From: a phage
Strand: one strand, 5' to 3'
Assembly: GCA_024975835.1 (NCBI GenBank)
Contig: GCA_024975835.1_4840.1
Length of the DNA: 64,000 nt
Shown here: piece after piece, positions 1,621 to 64,000 of the stretch
How the letters are laid out: the number at the start of each line of letters is the position of its first letter
Numbering within the stretch: position 1 is the first letter of the stretch
Translations under genes and position numbers: made by a program
The notes under the pieces: model-generated
The model's input: only the letters and a program-made list of their open reading frames with translations
What the model was told of the DNA's origin: nothing
Databases searched by the model: none

Positions 1621-1900
1621 CAGGGAATATACGCCATCGACCTATTCCATACCACTCACCGATAGAGTTCCATGTCCTTTCCCCAGGCCAGCCACCGACC
1701 GAGTAGTAATGCGCCACCAGCCGCCAGTAAGGAAGAGAGGCCGTGTTCACGCCGCCGTCGGCCTTTAGGCAGGCCAAGTACCAATTCGTGAGACTGAACG
1801 CCTGAAATAACGGATGAAGGAACATGAAGTACAGGTAGCCCAATATGGCTGTGAATACCCCAGCTGTTACGATCACACCGATGACAGTGAATACAATCAT
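1598..1900 (-). CDS. small membrane protein
   Basis: 100-aa ORF with hydrophobic N-terminal segment; GGAGG upstream; ATGA overlap with upstream gene. Confidence 0.5.
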   Translation of the reverse strand: MIVFTVIGVIVTAGVFTAILGYLYFMFLHPLFQAFSLTNWYLACLKADGGVNTASLPYWRLVAHYYSVGGWPGERTWNSIGEWYGIGRWRIFPDEDDQAP

Positions 1901-2529
1901 CCCACAACCTCCAGACCCATCAGATCTTCCATGGTCTTCTGAATACGCAGCCAGTCAAGCGCAGCGTCATAACGAGGGTCATGATAGACCATACCTTCCA
2001 GTTCCCACGCCTTGATACCAGCATACCGATCCTGCTGTCCAACACCCTTCAGCCAACTCACGATGTCGAAGGTGTGGTGGTAGTCCCAAGGCTCGTTGGA
2101 GTCCTGCTTACATGTCACCTCAATGATGTGCTGAGCCTTGCGCAGATCAAACAGGTTGCGATCACACCAGTCGACCGAGCGCGGGTCTACCCCAAGACGA
2201 TGACAACCCTTGCGGATTTCATCGGCCAATTGGAAGATAGAGATGTCATCTTCCTTGGGGTACAGACTGACTGCGCGAGCCGCATCACACGGGTTACGTT
2301 TACCCGCCCCCAACCACCATTCTACCGTCCCAGCGTCCTTCACGCGACCAAGTTCGAGCTGCTCTTTGACATTCAGCTTAATGAACGTCGTGCGCTCCTC
2401 AACCAGCTGCTGAAGAGTATAACGCTTGGTCAAGTCAGCGATGGTATGTGCCCAAGACAGCATGACTGCATCATCCCAGCGCCCCAGGGTTTCGCTGTCG
2501 GCCACAGCCAAAAAATTTGATTTATACAT
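1897..2529 (-). CDS. DEDDh-type 3'-5' exonuclease (DexA/oligoribonuclease-like)
   Basis: N-terminal AVADSETLG (D-x-E exo motif I) and C-terminal YHDPRYD (H-x4-D) by eye. Confidence 0.5.
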   Translation of the reverse strand: MYKSNFLAVADSETLGRWDDAVMLSWAHTIADLTKRYTLQQLVEERTTFIKLNVKEQLELGRVKDAGTVEWWLGAGKRNPCDAARAVSLYPKEDDISIFQLADEIRKGCHRLGVDPRSVDWCDRNLFDLRKAQHIIEVTCKQDSNEPWDYHHTFDIVSWLKGVGQQDRYAGIKAWELEGMVYHDPRYDAALDWLRIQKTMEDLMGLEVVG

Positions 2530-2773
2530 GTTTATTCTCCCAACACTTTATTTTGGCTTTTACTGTATAATAATTTTCATCAATGAACTTTTTGTTGACG
2601 CGCTTAATTTCTATCTCTGGGCAAAGTAACCCTATAGTTTCCCTCAAAATCTGGCTCACCCTGGCCTGTGAAATACAATAAATTTCTGATACTTCTTTCG
2701 AACTAGTTCCAGACATGACAAGTTTTAGAATATTGACCTTTTTATAAAATTCTTGATCAAACGCACATATCAT
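2522..2773 (-). CDS. small helix-turn-helix protein
   Basis: 83-aa ORF with HTH-like segment SEIYCISQARVSQILRE; strong GAGGAGGGG site inside the end of the upstream gene; AT-rich by eye. Confidence 0.5.
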   Translation of the reverse strand: MICAFDQEFYKKVNILKLVMSGTSSKEVSEIYCISQARVSQILRETIGLLCPEIEIKRVNKKFIDENYYTVKAKIKCWENKHV

Positions 2774-2776
2774 TAT

Positions 2777-3376
2777 TCACCCCTCCTCGTCGATGATTTC
2801 TTGCTCATCTTCGACAATCATGATACCTTCTGCGTCCAGATGAGAAAGTTCCATCAGATCATTATCGAATCCGTCTCCTTCCCTGATATAGAAGACTGGG
2901 ACGACACGACGGCGGGTCTCTTCATACACGCTTTCAGAGATTCGATTGATATGGCGTACTACACTGTAGAGGTTCAGGCCACCAATACCACAGCCGATAG
3001 CAGGCAGGCCGACATAGACAGTTTCGTCTTTAGTTGCTTCCACAATTTCATGCACCTGCTCAAACAGGGTCTGAACAGAACTGATGACAGACGGCATGCG
3101 AGCGTTCGGGCCTGGATAAAACTGAGTGTAGAGGTTCGCGCCCCAAACGCCCTTGCTGTGGTCAAATGCATAGGACATACCACCCAGGCGTTGCTCTGGA
3201 CCACGAGGGTCGTTCGCATCGACTTCGCGCAGCGCTGGGAAGTTGTTGCCGATGTGCAGGGCAATACCCGCGCCCATGGTAGACCAACAGTTGGCACCGT
3301 GGGCAAAGATGTCGATCAGATTGAAGCTACAGGCGGCTTTCAGTAAATCGCCGCCATTGATTACATAGGTTGTCAT
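2777..3376 (-). CDS. macro-domain protein (ADP-ribose binding/processing)
   Basis: GGDLLKAA...IDIFAHGANCWSTMGAGIALHI and VGLPAIGCGIGG resemble macro-domain glycine-rich ADP-ribose binding loops; acidic C-terminus; start moved to ATG at 3376 (GGAGACAG site, ATGA overlap). Confidence 0.55.
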   Translation of the reverse strand: MTTYVINGGDLLKAACSFNLIDIFAHGANCWSTMGAGIALHIGNNFPALREVDANDPRGPEQRLGGMSYAFDHSKGVWGANLYTQFYPGPNARMPSVISSVQTLFEQVHEIVEATKDETVYVGLPAIGCGIGGLNLYSVVRHINRISESVYEETRRRVVPVFYIREGDGFDNDLMELSHLDAEGIMIVEDEQEIIDEEG

Positions 3377-3615
3377 GCGTACTGTCTCCATTCAATAATG
3401 CTGTTGTCAACACATGACACCTGGATGATGCCTGTGCGGTGGTGATAATCAGTCATCTGCATGATAAAGTTGTTCCCATTGCGGATAATGGTGTTGACAA
3501 CGATACCCTTGGCAGCAAGGCGTATTACAATGGCAGTGCAAAGACGGTCCATGTAACCGGACACAGAACCTGGTTCGAAGCATCGCTCGAACAGGTTTTC
3601 AAATTCTGGGCTCAT
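3373..3615 (-). CDS. hypothetical protein
   Basis: 80-aa ORF whose stop overlaps the macro-domain gene start. Confidence 0.4.
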   Translation of the reverse strand: MSPEFENLFERCFEPGSVSGYMDRLCTAIVIRLAAKGIVVNTIIRNGNNFIMQMTDYHHRTGIIQVSCVDNSIIEWRQYA

Positions 3616-3665
3616 TTGATGTTACCAAACAAGAGGTCGAGGCGGTAATAATACCGCCTTTTTCT

Positions 3666-4076
3666 TCAATAGAGGTCTTCGGAAAAGAGTTCGCGGAAAG
3701 GGGTTGTCTTCAGGCGCACCTGATTGATCTGTCCAGCTTCACGGGCTACGATGCACGCCTCTTCACGAGTGAGGAAGTTGCCCTGGTTGTCGATGAATCC
3801 CTGTTCGCGGGTATGGGTGGATTTAATGACGCCTGCTTCTTTCAGGATCTTGAGCTGGCTGTTCATGAATCGGCTGTGGTGACGGTCGGCAACGACGATC
3901 ACGTCACCATATTTGTTGGCGGCAGCGACCACACGGCGCTCCCAGGCACCTTCGGCAGGAAGTTCACGAGTGTACAATGGAATCATCGTATCGCCGATGT
4001 CATCCCCTTTCACCTGTGAGAACAACTTGCCTTCAGTGCCCGTTGGGAGTTCACGAAAATATCCCAGTAATTTCAT
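3666..4076 (-). CDS. hypothetical protein
   Basis: 136-aa ORF with protein-like composition. Confidence 0.45.
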   Translation of the reverse strand: MKLLGYFRELPTGTEGKLFSQVKGDDIGDTMIPLYTRELPAEGAWERRVVAAANKYGDVIVVADRHHSRFMNSQLKILKEAGVIKSTHTREQGFIDNQGNFLTREEACIVAREAGQINQVRLKTTPFRELFSEDLY

Positions 4077-4135
4077 AATCTATTCAATCCAAATTTCAGG
4101 TTCATGGATGTCGACCATACCCACTGTCTGGTTCT

Positions 4136-4357
4136 TCAGATCGTGGAAACAGTCGCCGAGGAATTGTATTTGCCGTCGGTCAGGAACAGATGGCAACGTG
4201 ATGCTGGATCAGATGCATTCACCAGCAGGCTCGGTGTGAACGTAGGCTCAATAACATTGTTGTTCCACGACCACATCGGACCTTGGGTTTCGCCCTTAAT
4301 GTGATATAGATGAAGCATATCACACCTAGGACAATGAAAATACAAGGAATCATCCAT
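4136..4357 (-). CDS. hypothetical small Cys-containing protein
   Basis: 73-aa ORF with CPRC motif; weak support. Confidence 0.3.
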   Translation of the reverse strand: MDDSLYFHCPRCDMLHLYHIKGETQGPMWSWNNNVIEPTFTPSLLVNASDPASRCHLFLTDGKYNSSATVSTI

Positions 4358-4392
4358 AGACAGAAGTTTAGGGCTCAGAAGCTATGTTATGA

Positions 4393-4680
4393 TCAACCAT
4401 CTACAGTGGCTTCAGGATCGTAGGGGCGCAGTTCACCAACCAGTTTCGGAAAGAGTGCAAGCCCGAACAGGTTGAAAGAACGCATAGTGCCGACCATTGC
4501 AACATCTTCCCCTTCCTCGATATCTTTCATGGCGCACATTGGGTAATATTCATCGACCTCTGGGTCTTCCGTCTCACCATAGAGACCAAACGCTACCTCT
4601 TCTTTGATAAAGCGAGGAACCAAGAAATCAAATAGGATAATGATGAATACCACAGGTGCTGCAGAACGGAGATAGAACAT
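4393..4680 (-). CDS. small membrane protein
   Basis: 95-aa ORF with hydrophobic N-terminal segment. Confidence 0.4.
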   Translation of the reverse strand: MFYLRSAAPVVFIIILFDFLVPRFIKEEVAFGLYGETEDPEVDEYYPMCAMKDIEEGEDVAMVGTMRSFNLFGLALFPKLVGELRPYDPEATVDG

Positions 4681-4721
4681 AGCACAACCCTCCAGGTGAG
4701 GAGGGGCGAACCCCTCCGATG

Positions 4722-6062
4722 TTATAGGCCAAGAGCCTTTTCAAGGTCATCAAGGTCTTCAGTGTAAAGATCGATGTCCTCTTTCTTACTTAATTCCTTG
4801 TGCTGTGCTTCAAGGTTCTCAATCTGCTTGAGTAGGCGCTCACGGGCATCCAGAGTAATAGACGACAGAGGCATCTTGAACAACTCGTCAAGATCACCAC
4901 CAAAGTCCGGGTAGTCCTGCATGAACAGAGACTTCAGCACGTCAATCTTTTGGCGGAGATCAACACGCGTCGCCCATTCAATGAACACCGCCCGGTCACC
5001 CAGCTTGCGGATCCTGTCTGCCATGTCCTTCAACAGATACTGGCGACGGTCTTCATACCGTGACAGGCGATAATTGAAGAACGGCAGCAGCATATCCCGC
5101 CAACCAGAATAACGATGAATGACACCGTCTTCATCCCATGCCGTCCAAACAGGCTTGTTGGCTGAATACAACTTGAACATCTGCTCAACCTGCTCGTCAC
5201 TTAGCTTAGAGAGTTCGCCGCGCTTAAACACAACCGTGATATCCCAGCCGTCTTCGGTCGTGTCGTTGGCGTACTCGGTGAGGATACCAGCCTTGTACAG
5301 AGGCAGCAACACCTTGGTCTCATAGGTTTTGGCAAACCAACCCACTGGGACTTCGGTGATATGCAGGGTGGTGGCATTGACGCGACGGAAGATACCGCGA
5401 CTGTATGCTCTTCCTTCCTCAGTATAGCCTGTCTCTCCTTTGAAGCCGTTCCAGTACGGTTTTAAGTCTTTCGGGTCTTCGCCACGGAGAAGCGCTCTCA
5501 GGGCATTCAGCACGGACTTAACGCAATGACACGGGGTGTCGGTGGAATATCCGGTGCCGATACCATTGATCCCATTCACCAGGAACATGGGCAGGATGGG
5601 CAGAAAGAACTTCGGCTCTAGCCTTTCTTCACCAAGGTAGTTGTATTCCAAGATACCCTCATCCTCCTTGCGGAAGATCTTGCGGATAACATCAGACACA
5701 GCCACCGAAATGTAACGTGCTGACGACGCGTCGCGCCCCATGATAGAACCAAACTGGCCATCGCGGTCAAAGTACGGGATGTTGTTCGTGCCTGGGAACC
5801 CCTGAGCCATGTTCACGATAGTGCCGCTCATGTTCTCACCACCAGACTTGTAGTTGGTGCGAGCGGCGGCGAACATACCAAGGCGGTCAACAATCTCCTC
5901 CTTGTTGTACTCAAGAGCAGCGAAAAGGATCTTGCGCTGGCTTGGCTTGAGGCTGTCAATCAGCTGAGGGATTTGACGGATGCTGTTGACCACAGAAAAC
6001 TGCTTATGGTCAGTGTTGACAAAGTCCGTTACAGTAATGCTCTTAGCAACCATCTTATTCAT
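4722..6062 (-). CDS. 52: DNA topoisomerase II medium subunit (T4 gp52-like)
   Basis: Type II topoisomerase A-subunit-like sequence directly downstream of the ATPase subunit; start moved to internal ATG near the upstream stop. Confidence 0.8.
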   Translation of the reverse strand: MNKMVAKSITVTDFVNTDHKQFSVVNSIRQIPQLIDSLKPSQRKILFAALEYNKEEIVDRLGMFAAARTNYKSGGENMSGTIVNMAQGFPGTNNIPYFDRDGQFGSIMGRDASSARYISVAVSDVIRKIFRKEDEGILEYNYLGEERLEPKFFLPILPMFLVNGINGIGTGYSTDTPCHCVKSVLNALRALLRGEDPKDLKPYWNGFKGETGYTEEGRAYSRGIFRRVNATTLHITEVPVGWFAKTYETKVLLPLYKAGILTEYANDTTEDGWDITVVFKRGELSKLSDEQVEQMFKLYSANKPVWTAWDEDGVIHRYSGWRDMLLPFFNYRLSRYEDRRQYLLKDMADRIRKLGDRAVFIEWATRVDLRQKIDVLKSLFMQDYPDFGGDLDELFKMPLSSITLDARERLLKQIENLEAQHKELSKKEDIDLYTEDLDDLEKALGL

Positions 6063-58475: not shown

Positions 58476-59171
58476 ATGGCCAGACCATTTGAAAATTACT
58501 TCTACCATGATTCATTGATGAAATACATCAATCTGTTTGCCACCATTATGTCTGACCTGAAGGTGAACACAGAGCGTGGACTTATGGAAGTCCCATTACA
58601 CATGGCCATCGGGAGACGCAATGACCTCAACAGGAACGTGCCGTCCAACATGCTTCCATTTGCGACCTTCTCTTTTGGTCAGTTTGAGATCAACAAACAG
58701 GTGACGAAGACGTACCACAATCGACAATCGACACCAACAGCAGGGGCGAAGCAGCGAATCCCCCTGATTATCGATTTTGAGTACAATATCCGAACCAAGA
58801 AATTGGTTGAGATGTTACAGGTGCTAGAGCAGGTTTATTCGGTATTCACTCCCTCTCTAGACTGTGGTATCAAAGACAACGATACACTACAGCAAGACCA
58901 GAAGATCAAGATCCAACTGATCAGCCACCAGATGTCCGATAACTGGGAAGGGGATGCTTCTGATTCACCACACGTCGACTGCTCCTTCATGTTCCAGCTG
59001 AGCGGCTTCATCTACGGGTATGACTATTGGGTGGACAACGGTGGAGGCGGGGATCCTAACGGGATCAAAGAGATAATTATCGAAATGTCTAATGATTTGA
59101 AAACACCGTGGACGGAACTGCCGGAGTGGTTCCGTGTTGACAAAGACGGTGTACATCATCCTGGAGATTGA
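58476..59171 (+). CDS. tail completion/terminator protein (gp15-like, by position)
   Basis: 231-aa ORF coupled to neighbours (GGAGA site). Confidence 0.4.
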   Translation: MARPFENYFYHDSLMKYINLFATIMSDLKVNTERGLMEVPLHMAIGRRNDLNRNVPSNMLPFATFSFGQFEINKQVTKTYHNRQSTPTAGAKQRIPLIIDFEYNIRTKKLVEMLQVLEQVYSVFTPSLDCGIKDNDTLQQDQKIKIQLISHQMSDNWEGDASDSPHVDCSFMFQLSGFIYGYDYWVDNGGGGDPNGIKEIIIEMSNDLKTPWTELPEWFRVDKDGVHHPGD

Positions 59172-59173
59172 TT

Positions 59174-59881
59174 ATGAGTGCTATGTCAGAACGCCTATTA
59201 TCCACCCTCAGCGCTATCCAAGCGCGAGATGAGGTCGCTCAAGAAGTCATGGAGAAGACCTCGCCTGTGGCTGGAAAGGATTACGATCCGGATACAGGTG
59301 TATGGTTGGGTGAAAAGCCTGCGGGGTATGAGCCTGTGGTGTTTCCTCCTTCATTGGACCCAGAAGAGCTGAAGCCCAAGGAGTCTAAGGTTCCAGACTT
59401 CGAAGACACTGATGCCACCACCGACTACAAACGCATCCGTGACACGACTTATGCCATGCAGGAAGCCACGATGTTCATGATGGGGCAGGCAGCCAAACTT
59501 GCGACGACGACTGAAGCACCCCGTGCCTTCACAGTCTTCAAAGAGTTGGGTGAACTCATGCGCGGTCTGAACAAAGACCTGATGGAGAACCAGAAAACCA
59601 TCAAGGCGGTCACGGGCGACAGAGAGCCACCTCCTGGAGACGAAACAACCGTCGAGGTCACCACTTCCCCTGATGGGACAACAACAGTCAACGTCGGTAA
59701 ACAGGCCAGGTCTTCCCGTGATCTACTGAAGACCATCGAAGACGCCCGTAAACGTGCTGAAGAACGTGCTGCAGCGAAATCTGCGCCCAAAGGACCTGAT
59801 CCCGAAGAAGATGTAATCGACGTTCAGGCGGAGCCGCAGCCGAAGGAAGAAGGTGAAGACAATGGCGTATCAGAAGCGTGA
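59174..59881 (+). CDS. terminase small subunit (putative)
   Basis: Immediately upstream of and overlapping the large terminase gene; acidic/Lys-rich C-terminal tail; GGAG site. Confidence 0.45.
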   Translation: MSAMSERLLSTLSAIQARDEVAQEVMEKTSPVAGKDYDPDTGVWLGEKPAGYEPVVFPPSLDPEELKPKESKVPDFEDTDATTDYKRIRDTTYAMQEATMFMMGQAAKLATTTEAPRAFTVFKELGELMRGLNKDLMENQKTIKAVTGDREPPPGDETTVEVTTSPDGTTTVNVGKQARSSRDLLKTIEDARKRAEERAAAKSAPKGPDPEEDVIDVQAEPQPKEEGEDNGVSEA

Positions 59882-62072
59882 TGTAGAATACGCCCCACTC
59901 AAGACGGGGTTTAAAACAGAAGACGTCAGACTGCGTATGGACCAAACGTTCATGCGCAAGCCGTCTGTGCGCGCTCCTCGCGTGGAGTTGATGCTAACAG
60001 ATGAGCAGGAATCGGAGTTCGTCGAGTGCGCGATGGACGCCCATTACTTCGCCGCCAACTACTACAAGATCACGACCATCGATAAAGGCTTCATCCTCTT
60101 TGACATGCACGATTATCAGAAGCAGTTGTTCCATGACTTCCAGGACTATCGATTCAATGTGGTCGTCCAGGCTCGTCAGTCTGGGAAATGTGTAAAAGGT
60201 GACACGCTTGTCACAGTTTACGATACTCTCAGCCAAGAGGAGTTGATCCTGACCATAGGGGAGCTTCACAGCCGCTTCGAGGACGTCAACCACGCTGTGC
60301 CGCTGAATACCATTGGCAACCATGACAAGTTCGTGGACAGCCGCTTCGGTAAACGTTACTTTGTACAATCCGATAGTGGCTGGGTTCCGGTTATCGCGGC
60401 GCATAAGACGAAGAAATATGCGGAATTCGTTATTGTCACCGTTACCGGGCGACGAATTAACGTGGCCGATGAACATATGTTCTTCACTCCGGAAATGAAG
60501 GAGATATTTGCCAAAGACCTGAATGCTGGGTCATACATCATGACGTCAGAAGGTCCAGAAGAAATCCGTGAGATTTGGCAGACTGGTGAAATGCATCACA
60601 TGTATGACCTACAGGTGAAATCTGGTGATCAGCGCTACTACACCAACGGCTTCCTCAGCCACAACACGACAGTCGTGGCAGCATTCCTTCTCTGGTATGC
60701 GATGTTCCACTCCGACAAAGAGATCGCAGTACTGGCGAACAAAGAGAAGCAGGCGATTGAAATCCTGGATCGTATTCGAAAAGCATATCAAGATTTGCCA
60801 TTCTTCCTCCAACAGGGTTGTGAGAAGTTCGGTTCCACGCTGATAGAGTTCGAAAACGGATCAAAGATCTACGCCTATGCGACATCTTCCGACTCCATCC
60901 GTGGTCGATCTGTATCGCTCCTGTATGTGGACGAAGTGGCGTTCATTGAAAACGACTTTGAATTCTGGGAGTCTACATTCCCGGCGATTGCATCTGCAGA
61001 GACTTCACGTTGTATTCTGACCAGTACGCCGAAAGGTCAGCGCGGGTTATTCTACGACATCGTCACCAAGGCGAACCCAGAACACCCACAATACAACGAC
61101 TTCAAACTCACAGAGGTCCCATGGTATCGTGTTCCAACGTACACCAAAGATCCAGACTGGGAATCCAAACAAAGGGCGAAGCTGGGTGATGCACGTTTCG
61201 ATCAAGAATTTGGCATTAAGTTCCGTGGTTCTGTGGGATCACTGATACCTGCCAAGTGTCTGGACAAGATGACCTCGAAGCTGTATCAGGAGCCGAACGA
61301 GTTCACCAAGATTTACCACGACTACGATCCTAAGCGCATCTATATGGGTATCGCAGATACAGGCAAGGGTGTCGAAGGGGATTATTCTGTGCTGACCATT
61401 ATCGACATCACAGACTATCCTCACAAGATCGCAGCCAAGTATCGGAACAACACGATACCTCCAATGATGTATGCGTACACAATCGCCGATATGGGCGAGA
61501 AGTATGGAACGTGCCCGATGCTAGTCGAGACCAACAACGACGTGGGTGGTCAGGTAATCACTATCCTCTACCAGGAAATTGAATATCCCGAGATCATCTT
61601 CACCACAACAGATACCAAGGGCACAGGCAAGAGAATCGGTGGTCGCCGCCCTGAACCTGGTATCAATACCAACAAGAAGGTGCGCACAAACGGCTGTGCC
61701 AACCTGAAAGCCCTGATTGAACGTGAAATGCTGGTGATAGATGACCAGGACACGATAGATGAACTCAGTACATTCGTATGGACTGGGACAAGGTATGAAG
61801 CCGATGATGGTTGTCATGATGACTGTGTAATGCCTCTTGTGCTGTATGCATGGGCGGTGAAACAAGAATGGTTTAGTGACCTCACCAACTCCAGTATCTC
61901 AGTCGACATGAGAGGACGGTTGTCTGCGATGGAAGAATCACAGATGCTACCATTTGGAGGTATGATGTCGACGCCAGATCCTCACTCTGTGGAGAACATC
62001 CCAGGGTTCGGTGGAATTCAGGTTTATGACGACCGCTCTGGTATGTCTATGGAAGAATGGCTGAGACGGTGA
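59862..62072 (+). CDS. 17: terminase large subunit (T4 gp17-like) interrupted by a mini-intein
   Basis: Walker A split as QARQSGK / intein / TTVVAAF; removing 159 aa leaves about 577 aa; start at ATG 59862 (ORF track used GTG 59853). Confidence 0.85.
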   Translation: MAYQKRDVEYAPLKTGFKTEDVRLRMDQTFMRKPSVRAPRVELMLTDEQESEFVECAMDAHYFAANYYKITTIDKGFILFDMHDYQKQLFHDFQDYRFNVVVQARQSGKCVKGDTLVTVYDTLSQEELILTIGELHSRFEDVNHAVPLNTIGNHDKFVDSRFGKRYFVQSDSGWVPVIAAHKTKKYAEFVIVTVTGRRINVADEHMFFTPEMKEIFAKDLNAGSYIMTSEGPEEIREIWQTGEMHHMYDLQVKSGDQRYYTNGFLSHNTTVVAAFLLWYAMFHSDKEIAVLANKEKQAIEILDRIRKAYQDLPFFLQQGCEKFGSTLIEFENGSKIYAYATSSDSIRGRSVSLLYVDEVAFIENDFEFWESTFPAIASAETSRCILTSTPKGQRGLFYDIVTKANPEHPQYNDFKLTEVPWYRVPTYTKDPDWESKQRAKLGDARFDQEFGIKFRGSVGSLIPAKCLDKMTSKLYQEPNEFTKIYHDYDPKRIYMGIADTGKGVEGDYSVLTIIDITDYPHKIAAKYRNNTIPPMMYAYTIADMGEKYGTCPMLVETNNDVGGQVITILYQEIEYPEIIFTTTDTKGTGKRIGGRRPEPGINTNKKVRTNGCANLKALIEREMLVIDDQDTIDELSTFVWTGTRYEADDGCHDDCVMPLVLYAWAVKQEWFSDLTNSSISVDMRGRLSAMEESQMLPFGGMMSTPDPHSVENIPGFGGIQVYDDRSGMSMEEWLRR
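60189..60665 (+). mobile_element. mini-intein (159 aa) in the terminase Walker A motif
   Basis: Begins with Cys (CVKGDTLV), ends with His-Asn (GFLSHN) followed by Thr; splicing reconstitutes GKT; too short for a homing-endonuclease domain. Confidence 0.7.
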
Positions 62073-62084
62073 TCACTAAATATC
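62072..62084 (+). promoter_or_regulatory. late-promoter-like motif CTAAATATC
   Basis: CACTAAATATC about 45 nt upstream of the sheath start. Confidence 0.4.
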
Positions 62085-62124
62085 TTTCAAATTGAGCGAA
62101 ACTCTACAGAGAAGGAATAAGATT

Positions 62125-64000
62125 ATGGCAACTCAAAGCTTCAGCGTTGCGCCGTCCGTACAGTGGACTGAGCGTGATGCCACGCTTCAGACGTCCCCAT
62201 CCGTTGTTGTTCAGGGTGCGGCTGTCGGCAAATTCCAATGGGGTGAAGCAGAACTCCCTGTGTTGGTCACTGGTGGCGAAACTGGTCTGGTGAAGAAATT
62301 CTTCAAGCCAAACGATGCAACTGCCACCGACTTCTTGGTGATTGCTGACTTCCTGTCTTACAGCTCTGTTGCATGGGTGACCCGTGTGGTCGGTCCGGCG
62401 GCACGCAACGCTGTAACCAAAGGTCAGAGTGCAATCCTTATCCGCAACAAACTGGACTTCGAAACTGCGTCCCCATCTGCGTCTATTACCTGGACAGGCC
62501 GCTATGCTGGCTCTCTGGGTAACGACATTGCTGTGAACATCTGTGACGCTGCGCTGTTCCCGACCTGGGAATTCCGTAACAACTTCGCATATGCTCCGCA
62601 GGATGGCGAGTACCATATCGCCATCGTTGACAAAGTAGGTCGCATCACCGACTCTTCTGGCGCTGTTAGTCAGGTTGATCGTATCTCTGTATCCGGTACT
62701 GCCACCGCTGCTGGTTCCATCTCTGTTGCTGGTGAAGCCGTGGCGTACACTGACGCTGACACCCCGGCGACTCTGGCGACAAAGATCGGAACTGCGCTGA
62801 CGGAGCTGTCTGACGTGTATTCTTCTGTTGTCGTGAAGTCCAACACCGTCACCGTCACTCACAAAGCAATCGGTCCTCAGGCTGCGACTGCGATTGTTCC
62901 AGACGCGAATGGTCTGACTGCTACCGCTGCCGTCACCACTGTTGGTGCTTCCGGTACGATCATCGAGAAGTATGAACTGGTTCAGACCGCTCAGGGTTCT
63001 AAGAAATCTGATGGATCCAATGCGTACTTCAAAGACGTGATCAACGGCACCTCAAATTGGGTGTACACCTTCGCCACTACCCTGGCTGCTGGTGTCATTG
63101 AACTCGAAGGTGGTGTAGACGATTACACTGGGAACCGTGTTGCGGCTATCCAGGCACTGAACAACGCCGAAGCGTATGATGCCAAGCCAGTGTTCGGTTT
63201 CTGTGAAGAACTGATTGAGCAGCAGGCACTGATCGACCTGTCCACCGAGCGTAAAGACACAGTGTCCTTCGTGTCTCCTCTTCGCGATACGGTCGTCGGA
63301 AACCGTGGCCGTGAGATGGATGATGTTGTGGCCTGGCGTGAAAGTCTTGTTCGCGACTCCTCCTACTTCTTCATGGATGACAACTGGGCGTATGTGTACG
63401 ACAAGTACAACGACAAAATGCGTTGGATTCCGGCTTGTGGCGGCACCGCAGGTGTTTGGGCGCGCAGCATTGAAATCGCGGGTATCTACAAATCTCCGGC
63501 GTTCCACAACCGTGGTAAATACAACAACTATAATCGAATGGCGTGGTCTGCGTCTTCTGATGAGCGTGCTGTGCTGTATCGCAACCAGATCAACAGCATT
63601 GTCACCTTCTCCAACGAAGGCATCGTGTTGTACGGCGACAAGACTGGCCTGACCCGCCCATCTGCGTTCGACCGCATCAACGTTCGTGGTCTGTTCATTA
63701 TGGCAGAACAGAACATCGCAGCCATCGCCAAATACTACCTTGGTGAGAACAACGATGCATTCACTCGTGGATTGTTCAGCAACGCTGTCCGCCCATATAT
63801 CCGCCAGTTGGCCAACATGGGCGCGATCTATGACGGGATGGTGAAGTGTGATGAGGACAACAACACTGCGGAAGTTATCGCTGCCAACCAGATGGTTGCT
63901 GGTATCTGGCTGAAGCCCGAGTACAGCATAAATTGGGTGTATCTCGACTTCGCCGCCGTTCGCCCGGACATGGAATTCAGTGAGATCGAATCCGGTGGTG
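62125..64000 (+). CDS. 18: tail sheath protein (gp18-like), partial (3' end beyond window edge)
   Basis: Open frame from ATG 62125 (GAAGGA site) to the window end, not in the ORF track because no stop is reached; directly follows terminase as in T4. Confidence 0.65.
   Translation, partial: MATQSFSVAPSVQWTERDATLQTSPSVVVQGAAVGKFQWGEAELPVLVTGGETGLVKKFFKPNDATATDFLVIADFLSYSSVAWVTRVVGPAARNAVTKGQSAILIRNKLDFETASPSASITWTGRYAGSLGNDIAVNICDAALFPTWEFRNNFAYAPQDGEYHIAIVDKVGRITDSSGAVSQVDRISVSGTATAAGSISVAGEAVAYTDADTPATLATKIGTALTELSDVYSSVVVKSNTVTVTHKAIGPQAATAIVPDANGLTATAAVTTVGASGTIIEKYELVQTAQGSKKSDGSNAYFKDVINGTSNWVYTFATTLAAGVIELEGGVDDYTGNRVAAIQALNNAEAYDAKPVFGFCEELIEQQALIDLSTERKDTVSFVSPLRDTVVGNRGREMDDVVAWRESLVRDSSYFFMDDNWAYVYDKYNDKMRWIPACGGTAGVWARSIEIAGIYKSPAFHNRGKYNNYNRMAWSASSDERAVLYRNQINSIVTFSNEGIVLYGDKTGLTRPSAFDRINVRGLFIMAEQNIAAIAKYYLGENNDAFTRGLFSNAVRPYIRQLANMGAIYDGMVKCDEDNNTAEVIAANQMVAGIWLKPEYSINWVYLDFAAVRPDMEFSEIESGG

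Follow-up and report, generated by a model that had tools for sequence, protein, structure and literature searches.

The gene for the large terminase subunit (TerL) in the phage contig GCA_024975835.1_4840.1 (NCBI GenBank assembly GCA_024975835.1) carries an in-frame segment that we interpret as an intein inserted in the P-loop of the packaging ATPase. The whole stretch of DNA analyzed, 64,000 nucleotides (nt) long, is referred to here as the window. An original prediction made from the sequence alone had placed a block of 159 amino acids (aa), running from a Cys to an Asn, at 60189-60665; checked against the raw sequence and the list of open reading frames (ORFs), both its coordinates and its reading were exact. 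The gene is composed of the following parts.

59862..62072, plus strand: TerL precursor gene, 736 aa plus stop; matches Pfam Terminase_6N and Terminase_6C, with 99.6% aa identity to TerL of phage vB_CECAV_050.
59862..60188, plus strand: N-extein, 109 aa, ending ...QARQSGK, the first half of Walker A (from the sequence and from alignments with intein-free alleles and T4 gp17).
60189..60665, plus strand: mini-intein, assigned to class 1, 159 aa from Cys1 to Asn159 (from sequence, family models, conservation, and fold; the homologous 477 nt are annotated in phage Mooltan).
60189..60212, plus strand: block A, CVKGDTLV; holds the nucleophile Cys1, which does not vary among 17 homologues.
60447..60485, plus strand: block B, GRRINVADEHMFF; A93, D94, and H96 are invariant.
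60594..60626, plus strand: block F, HHMYDLQVKSG, with Asp140; M138 and D140 are invariant; aligned with the VidaL, gp41-1, and CatC inteins.
60633..60665, plus strand: block G, RYYTNGFLSHN, with His158 and Asn159; Y150, T152, G154, L156, S157, H158, and N159 are invariant; matched by TIGR01443.
60666..62072 (60666..62069 without the stop), plus strand: C-extein, 468 aa plus stop, starting at Thr+1 (TTVVAAF); completes Walker A and holds the remainder of the ATPase together with the nuclease domain.

The block comprises 477 nt, or 159 codons, and lies in frame within the one unbroken reading frame of the terL ORF, the precursor reading VVQARQSGK-[CVKGDTLV...YYTNGFLSHN]-TTVVAAF. At the upstream junction the codons tct ggg aaa are followed by TGT (Cys1, 60189-60191), and at the downstream junction cac AAC (Asn159, 60663-60665) is followed by ACG ACA, of which ACG (60666-60668) encodes Thr+1 and the next codon Thr+2. 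Cys1 is the sole cysteine of the intein. On the mechanical ORF list terL extends over 59853..62072 (plus strand) from a GTG at 59853; the ATG at 59862, which is the TerL start in annotated relatives, yields the 736-aa precursor, of which 577 aa are left once the 159-aa block is taken out. In Pfam, Terminase_6N (the T4-type ATPase) flanks the block on both sides, and Terminase_6C (the RNase-H-like nuclease) follows it.

Homologues that lack the block mark the insertion site precisely. Used as a query against 5.8 billion proteins, the spliced sequence recovered intein-bearing TerL proteins of 735 to 756 aa together with intein-free TerL proteins of 575 to 583 aa, the latter at no more than 85% identity. 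All 12 intein-free homologues (40 to 85% identity) read RQ[S/A]GK-TT uninterrupted, with exactly 159 residues missing, and two intein-free alleles were traced to metagenomic contigs that share the gene order gp13-gp14-gp15-terS-terL-sheath-tube-portal. A tblastn search with a 30-aa junction peptide also located the contiguous junction in cultured Ackermannviridae, namely Erwinia phage vB_EamM-Bue1 (Nezavisimistyvirus; TerL of 580 aa) and Vibrio phage YC (Campanilevirus; TerL of 583 aa), whose intein-free genes lie as follows.

2201..3943 of the extracted locus: intein-free terL of Erwinia phage vB_EamM-Bue1.
2198..3949 of the extracted locus: intein-free terL of Vibrio phage YC.

The original prediction had depended on intein-free relatives not keeping the segment as a conserved terminase domain; since the 12 homologues, Bue1, and YC are all without it, that objection does not arise. 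Excision restores an RQSGKTT P-loop, as had been foreseen, and QARQSGKTTVVAAFL of the spliced TerL falls over T4 LSRQLGKTTVVAIFL, which we take to be the Walker A motif of gp17 (RQSGKTT versus gp17 SRQLGKTTVVA). The expectation that excision would leave a protein of T4-like length was likewise borne out, the 577-aa product aligning end to end with T4 gp17 (PDB 3ezk/3cpe; E value of ~1e-72).

The identity of the block as an intein, also part of the original prediction, is supported by family models, conservation, and predicted structure, with blocks A, B, F, and G all present. The Pfam model Intein_splicing scores 36.0 bits (gathering score, 35.8; E value, 7.6e-9), while the NCBIfam models TIGR01445 (intein_Nterm) and TIGR01443 (intein_Cterm) score 26.7 (cut-off, 24.5) and 16.6 (cut-off, 15.6), the latter with the whole protein as query. 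The intein alone, queried against the same 5.8-billion-protein collection, returned two matches, the word index being built on whole proteins; intein homologues are the blocks cut from TerL proteins that were found with the spliced extein query, and 17 of them were aligned, at 33 to 100% identity to the window intein. Invariant across the 17 are Cys1, Ala93-Asp94-x-His96, Met138, Asp140, Tyr150, Thr152, Gly154, Leu156, Ser157, His158, and Asn159, and the junctions read RQ[S/A]GK-C...SHN-TT[V/I]V in 21 of the 21 intein-bearing proteins extracted. A profile of the 17 homologues matched VidaL (E value, 5e-10), gp41-1 (9e-10), and CatC (2e-8) in the PDB. An AlphaFold2 model computed from the homologue alignment (pLDDT, 95.1; pTM, 0.88) adopts an all-beta HINT-like fold with two short helices at residues 23-43. 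In a Foldseek search of this model against the PDB, all 50 of the listed matches were inteins or intein-like BIL domains at a probability of 1.00; the best was VidaL (6vgv; E value, 8.3e-11; TM, 0.76/0.83), and other top matches included PhoCDC21-1, NpuDnaB, the TFIIB mini-inteins, Mxe GyrA, and gp41-1.

These results bear on whether the block might instead be an artefact of assembly or annotation, or a chance Cys...His-Asn bracket within a lineage-specific terminase domain. Beyond the a priori possibility, the only point in favor of an artefact is that one relative, Klebsiella phage TTM-TASP117, has one here, a run of N. Against it, the same 477-nt insertion is found in ~300 independently sequenced genomes, and the precise lack of the block in homologues agrees with both the family models and the predicted fold; we regard the probability of an artefact or a chance bracket as negligible. 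In TTM-TASP117, ~200 extra nt within the intein (~3180..3280 of the extracted locus) were rejected as a genuine feature, being a run of N flanked by a duplication in a partial assembly; the same run of N disrupts the annotation of terL in the record as well.

With regard to class, the intein has the features expected of class 1, namely a HINT fold, Cys1, the block F Asp, the His-Asn terminus, Thr+1, and insertion at a site that is contiguous in intein-free homologues. Class 3 inteins are defined by the lack of a position 1 nucleophile and by a Trp in block B, a Cys at F:4, and a Thr in block G (PMC2807308); we rejected this class, as Cys1 is present and F:4 is Asp140 rather than Cys. A naturally split intein was rejected for the window on the strength of its single uninterrupted reading frame. 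The designation as a mini-intein follows from the ~36 residues between blocks B and F, which form beta strands of the HINT fold in the AlphaFold2 model. Searches of the intein for an endonuclease domain gave no Pfam matches and no LAGLIDADG- or HNH-type insertion between blocks B and F. The original prediction of no room for such a domain thus held up, since the splicing fold and a short helical excursion (23-43) use all 159 residues.

Selection on the intein was assessed from the ratio of nonsynonymous to synonymous substitution rates (dN/dS; Nei-Gojobori), restricted to comparisons with unsaturated dS. Values were 0.04 to 0.18 for the intein versus 0.01 to 0.03 for the C-extein; the intein is under purifying selection, with a constraint 5 to 10 times weaker than that on the terminase. 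A tblastn search of phage records found intein-bearing terL in ~300 isolated, viable phages. So many viable isolates with an insertion in an essential gene argue indirectly for efficient splicing.

A degenerate HINT insertion or BIL domain that does not splice, whether tolerated in place or cleaving without ligation, would fit the absence of the canonical block B Thr, the presence of BIL domains among the lower-ranked fold matches, the label "pretoxin HINT domain protein" in some Dickeya phage records, and a weak PT-HINT match in Pfam, which is itself below threshold (16.6 bits versus a cut-off of 27.7; E value, 0.0097). BIL and pretoxin-HINT domains occur in variable, nonessential protein contexts, typically without a conserved +1 nucleophile or insertion site. 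Membership in either group was rejected because the block interrupts Walker A in an essential ATPase and is followed by an invariant Thr+1. As the gp17 alignment indicates, the insertion splits the Walker A Lys-Thr pair, and the ATPase of a P-loop NTPase cannot tolerate an insertion there. Moreover, the residues for both splice junctions, Thr+1 included, are all invariant, and cleavage without ligation would ruin an essential protein in ~300 viable phages. Taken with the anatomy of the junctions, these observations render a nonsplicing insertion highly improbable.

We conclude that the segment is very probably a canonical class 1 mini-intein that lacks a homing endonuclease and splices itself from the P-loop of TerL. 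On the established pathway, His96 of block B would assist an N-S acyl shift at Lys(-1)/Cys1, after which trans-esterification onto the hydroxyl of Thr+1 would take place. Asn159 would then cyclize with the assistance of His158 and with Asp140 of block F coordinating, and an O-N shift would produce the Lys-Thr peptide bond. This should release the intein (159 aa, 18 kDa) in free form and leave a 577-aa TerL whose RQSGKTT P-loop is intact. Given the position of the insertion between Lys and Thr, the ATP-binding loop of the precursor would be broken until splicing occurs, so ATPase and packaging activity should require splicing. Some observations weigh against this assignment. The Pfam score barely exceeds its threshold (36.0 versus 35.8), single-sequence matches of the intein to the PDB are weak (E value of ~0.01), and block B reads Ala-Asp-x-His in all 17 aligned homologues, with Ala where the canonical TxxH has Thr; His96 is kept, and this Ala is the only departure from the textbook intein pattern. 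As a nucleophile Thr+1 is inferior to Cys or Ser, and the literature searched yielded no experimental demonstration that an Ackermannviridae TerL intein splices. We consider that the intein is almost certainly functional.

A tblastn search of 50,697 phage records showed 99.6% identity to TerL of Salmonella phage vB_CECAV_050 (Ackermannviridae, Agtrevirus) and 98.8% to that of Escherichia phage AV101; the window therefore derives from an Agtrevirus-like phage of the Ackermannviridae (subfamily Aglimvirinae). The gene for the small terminase subunit lies immediately upstream, its 3′ end overlapping the start of terL by 20 nt, and in all relatives the downstream neighbor of terL is the tail sheath gene.

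59174..59881, plus strand: terS, small terminase subunit gene; PF11053 (DNA_Packaging), 29.5 bits; homologous coding sequences are labeled "terminase small subunit" in vB_CECAV_050 and AV101.

An antisense ORF of 160 aa (59994..60476, minus strand) overlaps the N-extein and the intein and is probably spurious. No Pfam match was found for it, and no excess of promoter-like or terminator-like sites over shuffled sequence was seen in 59000..62300, so that neither strand gives evidence of a second function.

Inteins at the same site occur in Kuttervirus, Agtrevirus, Limestonevirus, Taipeivirus, Miltonvirus, Vapseptimavirus, and Kujavirus, and are absent from Nezavisimistyvirus and Campanilevirus. 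The enterobacterial genera have a 159-aa form and the Vibrio phages one of 170 to 179 aa, the extra residues falling in the loop at 31-45. In a neighbor-joining tree of the exteins, intein-free and intein-bearing alleles are interleaved, a pattern that is only indicative because the tree carries no bootstrap support. Such interleaving is the sporadic pattern typical of inteins and would imply several gains or precise losses. Having no endonuclease, the element cannot home actively; it may persist because only a precise deletion would be tolerable in an essential motif, and it would spread between phages by ordinary homologous recombination during coinfection.

This distribution can also be viewed in light of a possible regulatory function, in which the intein would be a domesticated, conditionally splicing switch that sets the moment late in infection at which the packaging ATPase and nuclease become active, in response to temperature, redox state, nucleotide or DNA, or the binding of TerS or portal. 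Its retention at one site across seven Ackermannviridae genera without an endonuclease and the purifying selection acting on it would be in keeping with such a role, and a regulatory role for P-loop inteins in general has been raised by Kelley et al. in 2016 (PMC5050341). However, intein-free alleles are interleaved in the extein tree and two Ackermannviridae genera manage without the intein, whose nonsynonymous evolution is 5 to 10 times faster than that of the extein. A disulfide redox trap would require a second cysteine, which the intein, with Cys1 alone, lacks, and the need for precise deletion explains retention at an essential motif equally well. We therefore judge a conditional switch to be very unlikely.

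A mosaic of alleles within terL suggests how the intein has moved. Part of an otherwise Agtrevirus-type gene is of the type found in the Kuttervirus phage CBA120:

60146..60590, no strand assigned: Kuttervirus (CBA120)-type recombinant tract in otherwise Agtrevirus-type terL (from informative sites and sliding-window identity).

The tract of 445 nt covers 43 nt of the N-extein and the first 402 nt of the intein, ending 75 nt short of the intein 3′ end. Among sites informative between CBA120 and phage Ag3, 106 of 112 match CBA120 inside the tract, versus 73 of 373 outside it (Fisher P value of 8e-50). In sliding windows over the terL alignment, the tract is 95 to 100% identical to CBA120, and the rest of terL is ~90% identical to Ag3 and 76 to 85% identical to CBA120. 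The window and Ag3, which belongs to the same genus, share 96.7% identity in the extein and 75.5% in the intein, while the window and CBA120, from another subfamily, share 87.3% in the extein and 96.9% in the intein. These comparisons imply an exchange of intein alleles between Cvivirinae and Aglimvirinae without an endonuclease.

Kuttervirus itself holds two diverged intein alleles, the CBA120 type and the Mooltan/SFP10 type, with 77% protein identity. CBA120 and Mooltan have no aa differences in the compared extein (60 aa upstream and 200 aa downstream), and their inteins differ at ~15% of nonsynonymous sites. Salmonella phage LPST94 has a chimeric intein (3001..3477 of the extracted locus), with a CBA120-type N-terminal half, a Mooltan-type C-terminal half, and a breakpoint near window-equivalent position 60430. 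Together, the patterns indicate homologous recombination between intein-bearing alleles rather than endonuclease-driven homing into empty sites. Modest value is added by the interleaving of intein-bearing and intein-free alleles within one phage family and by the recombinational exchange of alleles between subfamilies without an endonuclease.

A free-standing homing-endonuclease ORF of the HNH/NUMOD3 type (~292 aa) was observed between terS and terL in Limestonevirus and in Klebsiella phage TTM-TASP117, ~330 nt upstream of the intein site.

1809..2687 of the extracted locus: HNH/NUMOD3 ORF of Dickeya phage Ds25CZ.
1806..2687 of the extracted locus: HNH/NUMOD3 ORF of TTM-TASP117.

The window, in which terS and terL overlap, lacks this ORF, which is thus no part of the window locus; "collaborative homing" by a free-standing endonuclease was rejected there on the same grounds.

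A homologous TerL intein at the same Lys-Thr site was found in Delftia phage PhiW-14 (NC_013697.1; 2425..3303 of the extracted locus). Its reading frame is broken by TGA TAA after 43 intein residues, with all catalytic residues intact, and the stops are followed by a GC-rich hairpin and T-run (-28 kcal/mol; z, -2.8), after which come a Shine-Dalgarno sequence (GGAG) and an ATG. This ATG is the annotated start of the "terminase large subunit" (a 121-aa IntC plus the C-extein), and the upstream ORF for the N-extein and a 43-aa IntN is unannotated. The arrangement looks like a natural, atypically split TerL intein (43 plus 121 aa) of the AceL-TerL/GOS-TerL kind in a cultured phage, although a sequencing error may also have broken the frame. 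Further relatives have insertions in the same P-loop. Campylobacter phages (Eucampyvirinae; seen in vB_CjeM_WX1 at 2494..4722 of the extracted locus) have a related TerL intein of ~145 aa (~28 to 34% identical) that sits three residues upstream and has Ser+1 (PRQ-CIEANT...GVLSHN-SSKSTT), a second, shifted insertion point in one motif. In a metagenomic TerL of 838 aa, the P-loop site used in the window is occupied by a 150-aa intein, and a further ~110 residues, which might be a second insertion, separate the P-loop from the remainder of Terminase_6N.

One could go further and propose that the TerL intein is no mere stranded parasite but is retained as a post-translational gate on terminase activation, that its diverged alleles (75 to 77% aa identity next to nearly identical exteins) are shuffled across genera and subfamilies by recombination, the 60146..60590 tract being one instance, because allele identity matters (e.g., through host-dependent splicing kinetics), and that the split intein of PhiW-14 is a related novelty. 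We think this unlikely. Only the recombination mosaic and the PhiW-14 arrangement are mildly new.

The element itself is already known, having been annotated and published in close relatives since 2013, and is an ordinary member of a well-known class. A large terminase interrupted by an intein was reported for Salmonella phage Marshall in 2013 (PMC3853055), and TerL inteins were described in 2019 for Salmonella phage Mooltan (PMC6486243) and likewise for Klebsiella phage Magnus (PMC6763660); Luna et al. is one of the papers on the TerL intein of this family. The inteins of Marshall, Maynard, Mooltan, and Magnus share the gene, the Lys-Thr P-loop site, and the 159-aa length with the window intein, which has 77% aa identity to the Mooltan/Maynard type and 97% to CBA120. 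The window differs from the published cases in its genus (Agtrevirus-like, Aglimvirinae) and in having a CBA120-type allele acquired by recombination. Published notes on the Ackermannviridae TerL intein give no splice-site detail, structure, or experiment.

Annotation of these genes is uneven, and the intein is under-annotated across the family. The Mooltan GenBank record has a mat_peptide "intein" on exactly the homologous 477 nt, and the nr entries for Maynard and Marshall annotate the intein, including "intein [Salmonella phage Maynard]" (159 aa, 77% identical to the window intein); the CBA120 record labels the gene only as terminase large subunit. Most related records say "terminase large subunit" and several say "hypothetical protein"; three Dickeya phage records (phiD3, phiDP23.1, and RC-2014) use the label "pretoxin HINT domain protein." The terL product is better described as a precursor made of N-extein, intein, and C-extein; most of the ~300 related GenBank records omit the intein.

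Outside the Ackermannviridae, the closest parallel in insertion site is provided by the "classic" P-loop inteins of mycobacteriophage TerL1-a, which sit in Walker A with the invariant Lys on one side and the nucleophilic Thr on the other (PMC5050341). The likeness is one of insertion site, as the TerL1-a host protein belongs to Terminase_1 and that of the window to Terminase_6; the Terminase_6 inteins of Kelley et al. sit in the C-motif (PMC5050341). In that 2016 study in mBio, a requirement of splicing for the active site and the pentamer was the authors' inference, the MIG reporter showed splicing of five further TerL inteins (sites b, c, e, f, and g), and at least two mycobacteriophage TerL inteins, TerL1-b and TerL1-c, carried active endonucleases (PMC5050341). 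The window intein is one more case of the well-documented tendency of inteins to occupy P-loops in phage and cellular ATPases and leaves the current understanding unchanged.

The nearest solved relatives of the window intein are VidaL, gp41-1, and Cat by profile (E values of 5e-10 to 2e-8), with VidaL the best by fold. The block G motif YYTNG(I/F)(L/V)SHN is common to the window intein and this group, and the AceL-TerL and GOS-TerL inteins also reside in TerL genes (PMC11766414). VidaL, gp41-1, Cat, AceL-TerL, and GOS-TerL come from environmental phage genes, are atypically or naturally split (trans-splicing) or engineered, and have Cys or Ser at +1, whereas the window intein, with just 19 to 26% identity, is a contiguous (cis-splicing) one with Thr+1. 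As a contiguous Thr+1 mini-intein related to split inteins used in biotechnology (VidaL, gp41-1, and Cat), it may be of some interest to protein engineers, as may its PhiW-14 counterpart.

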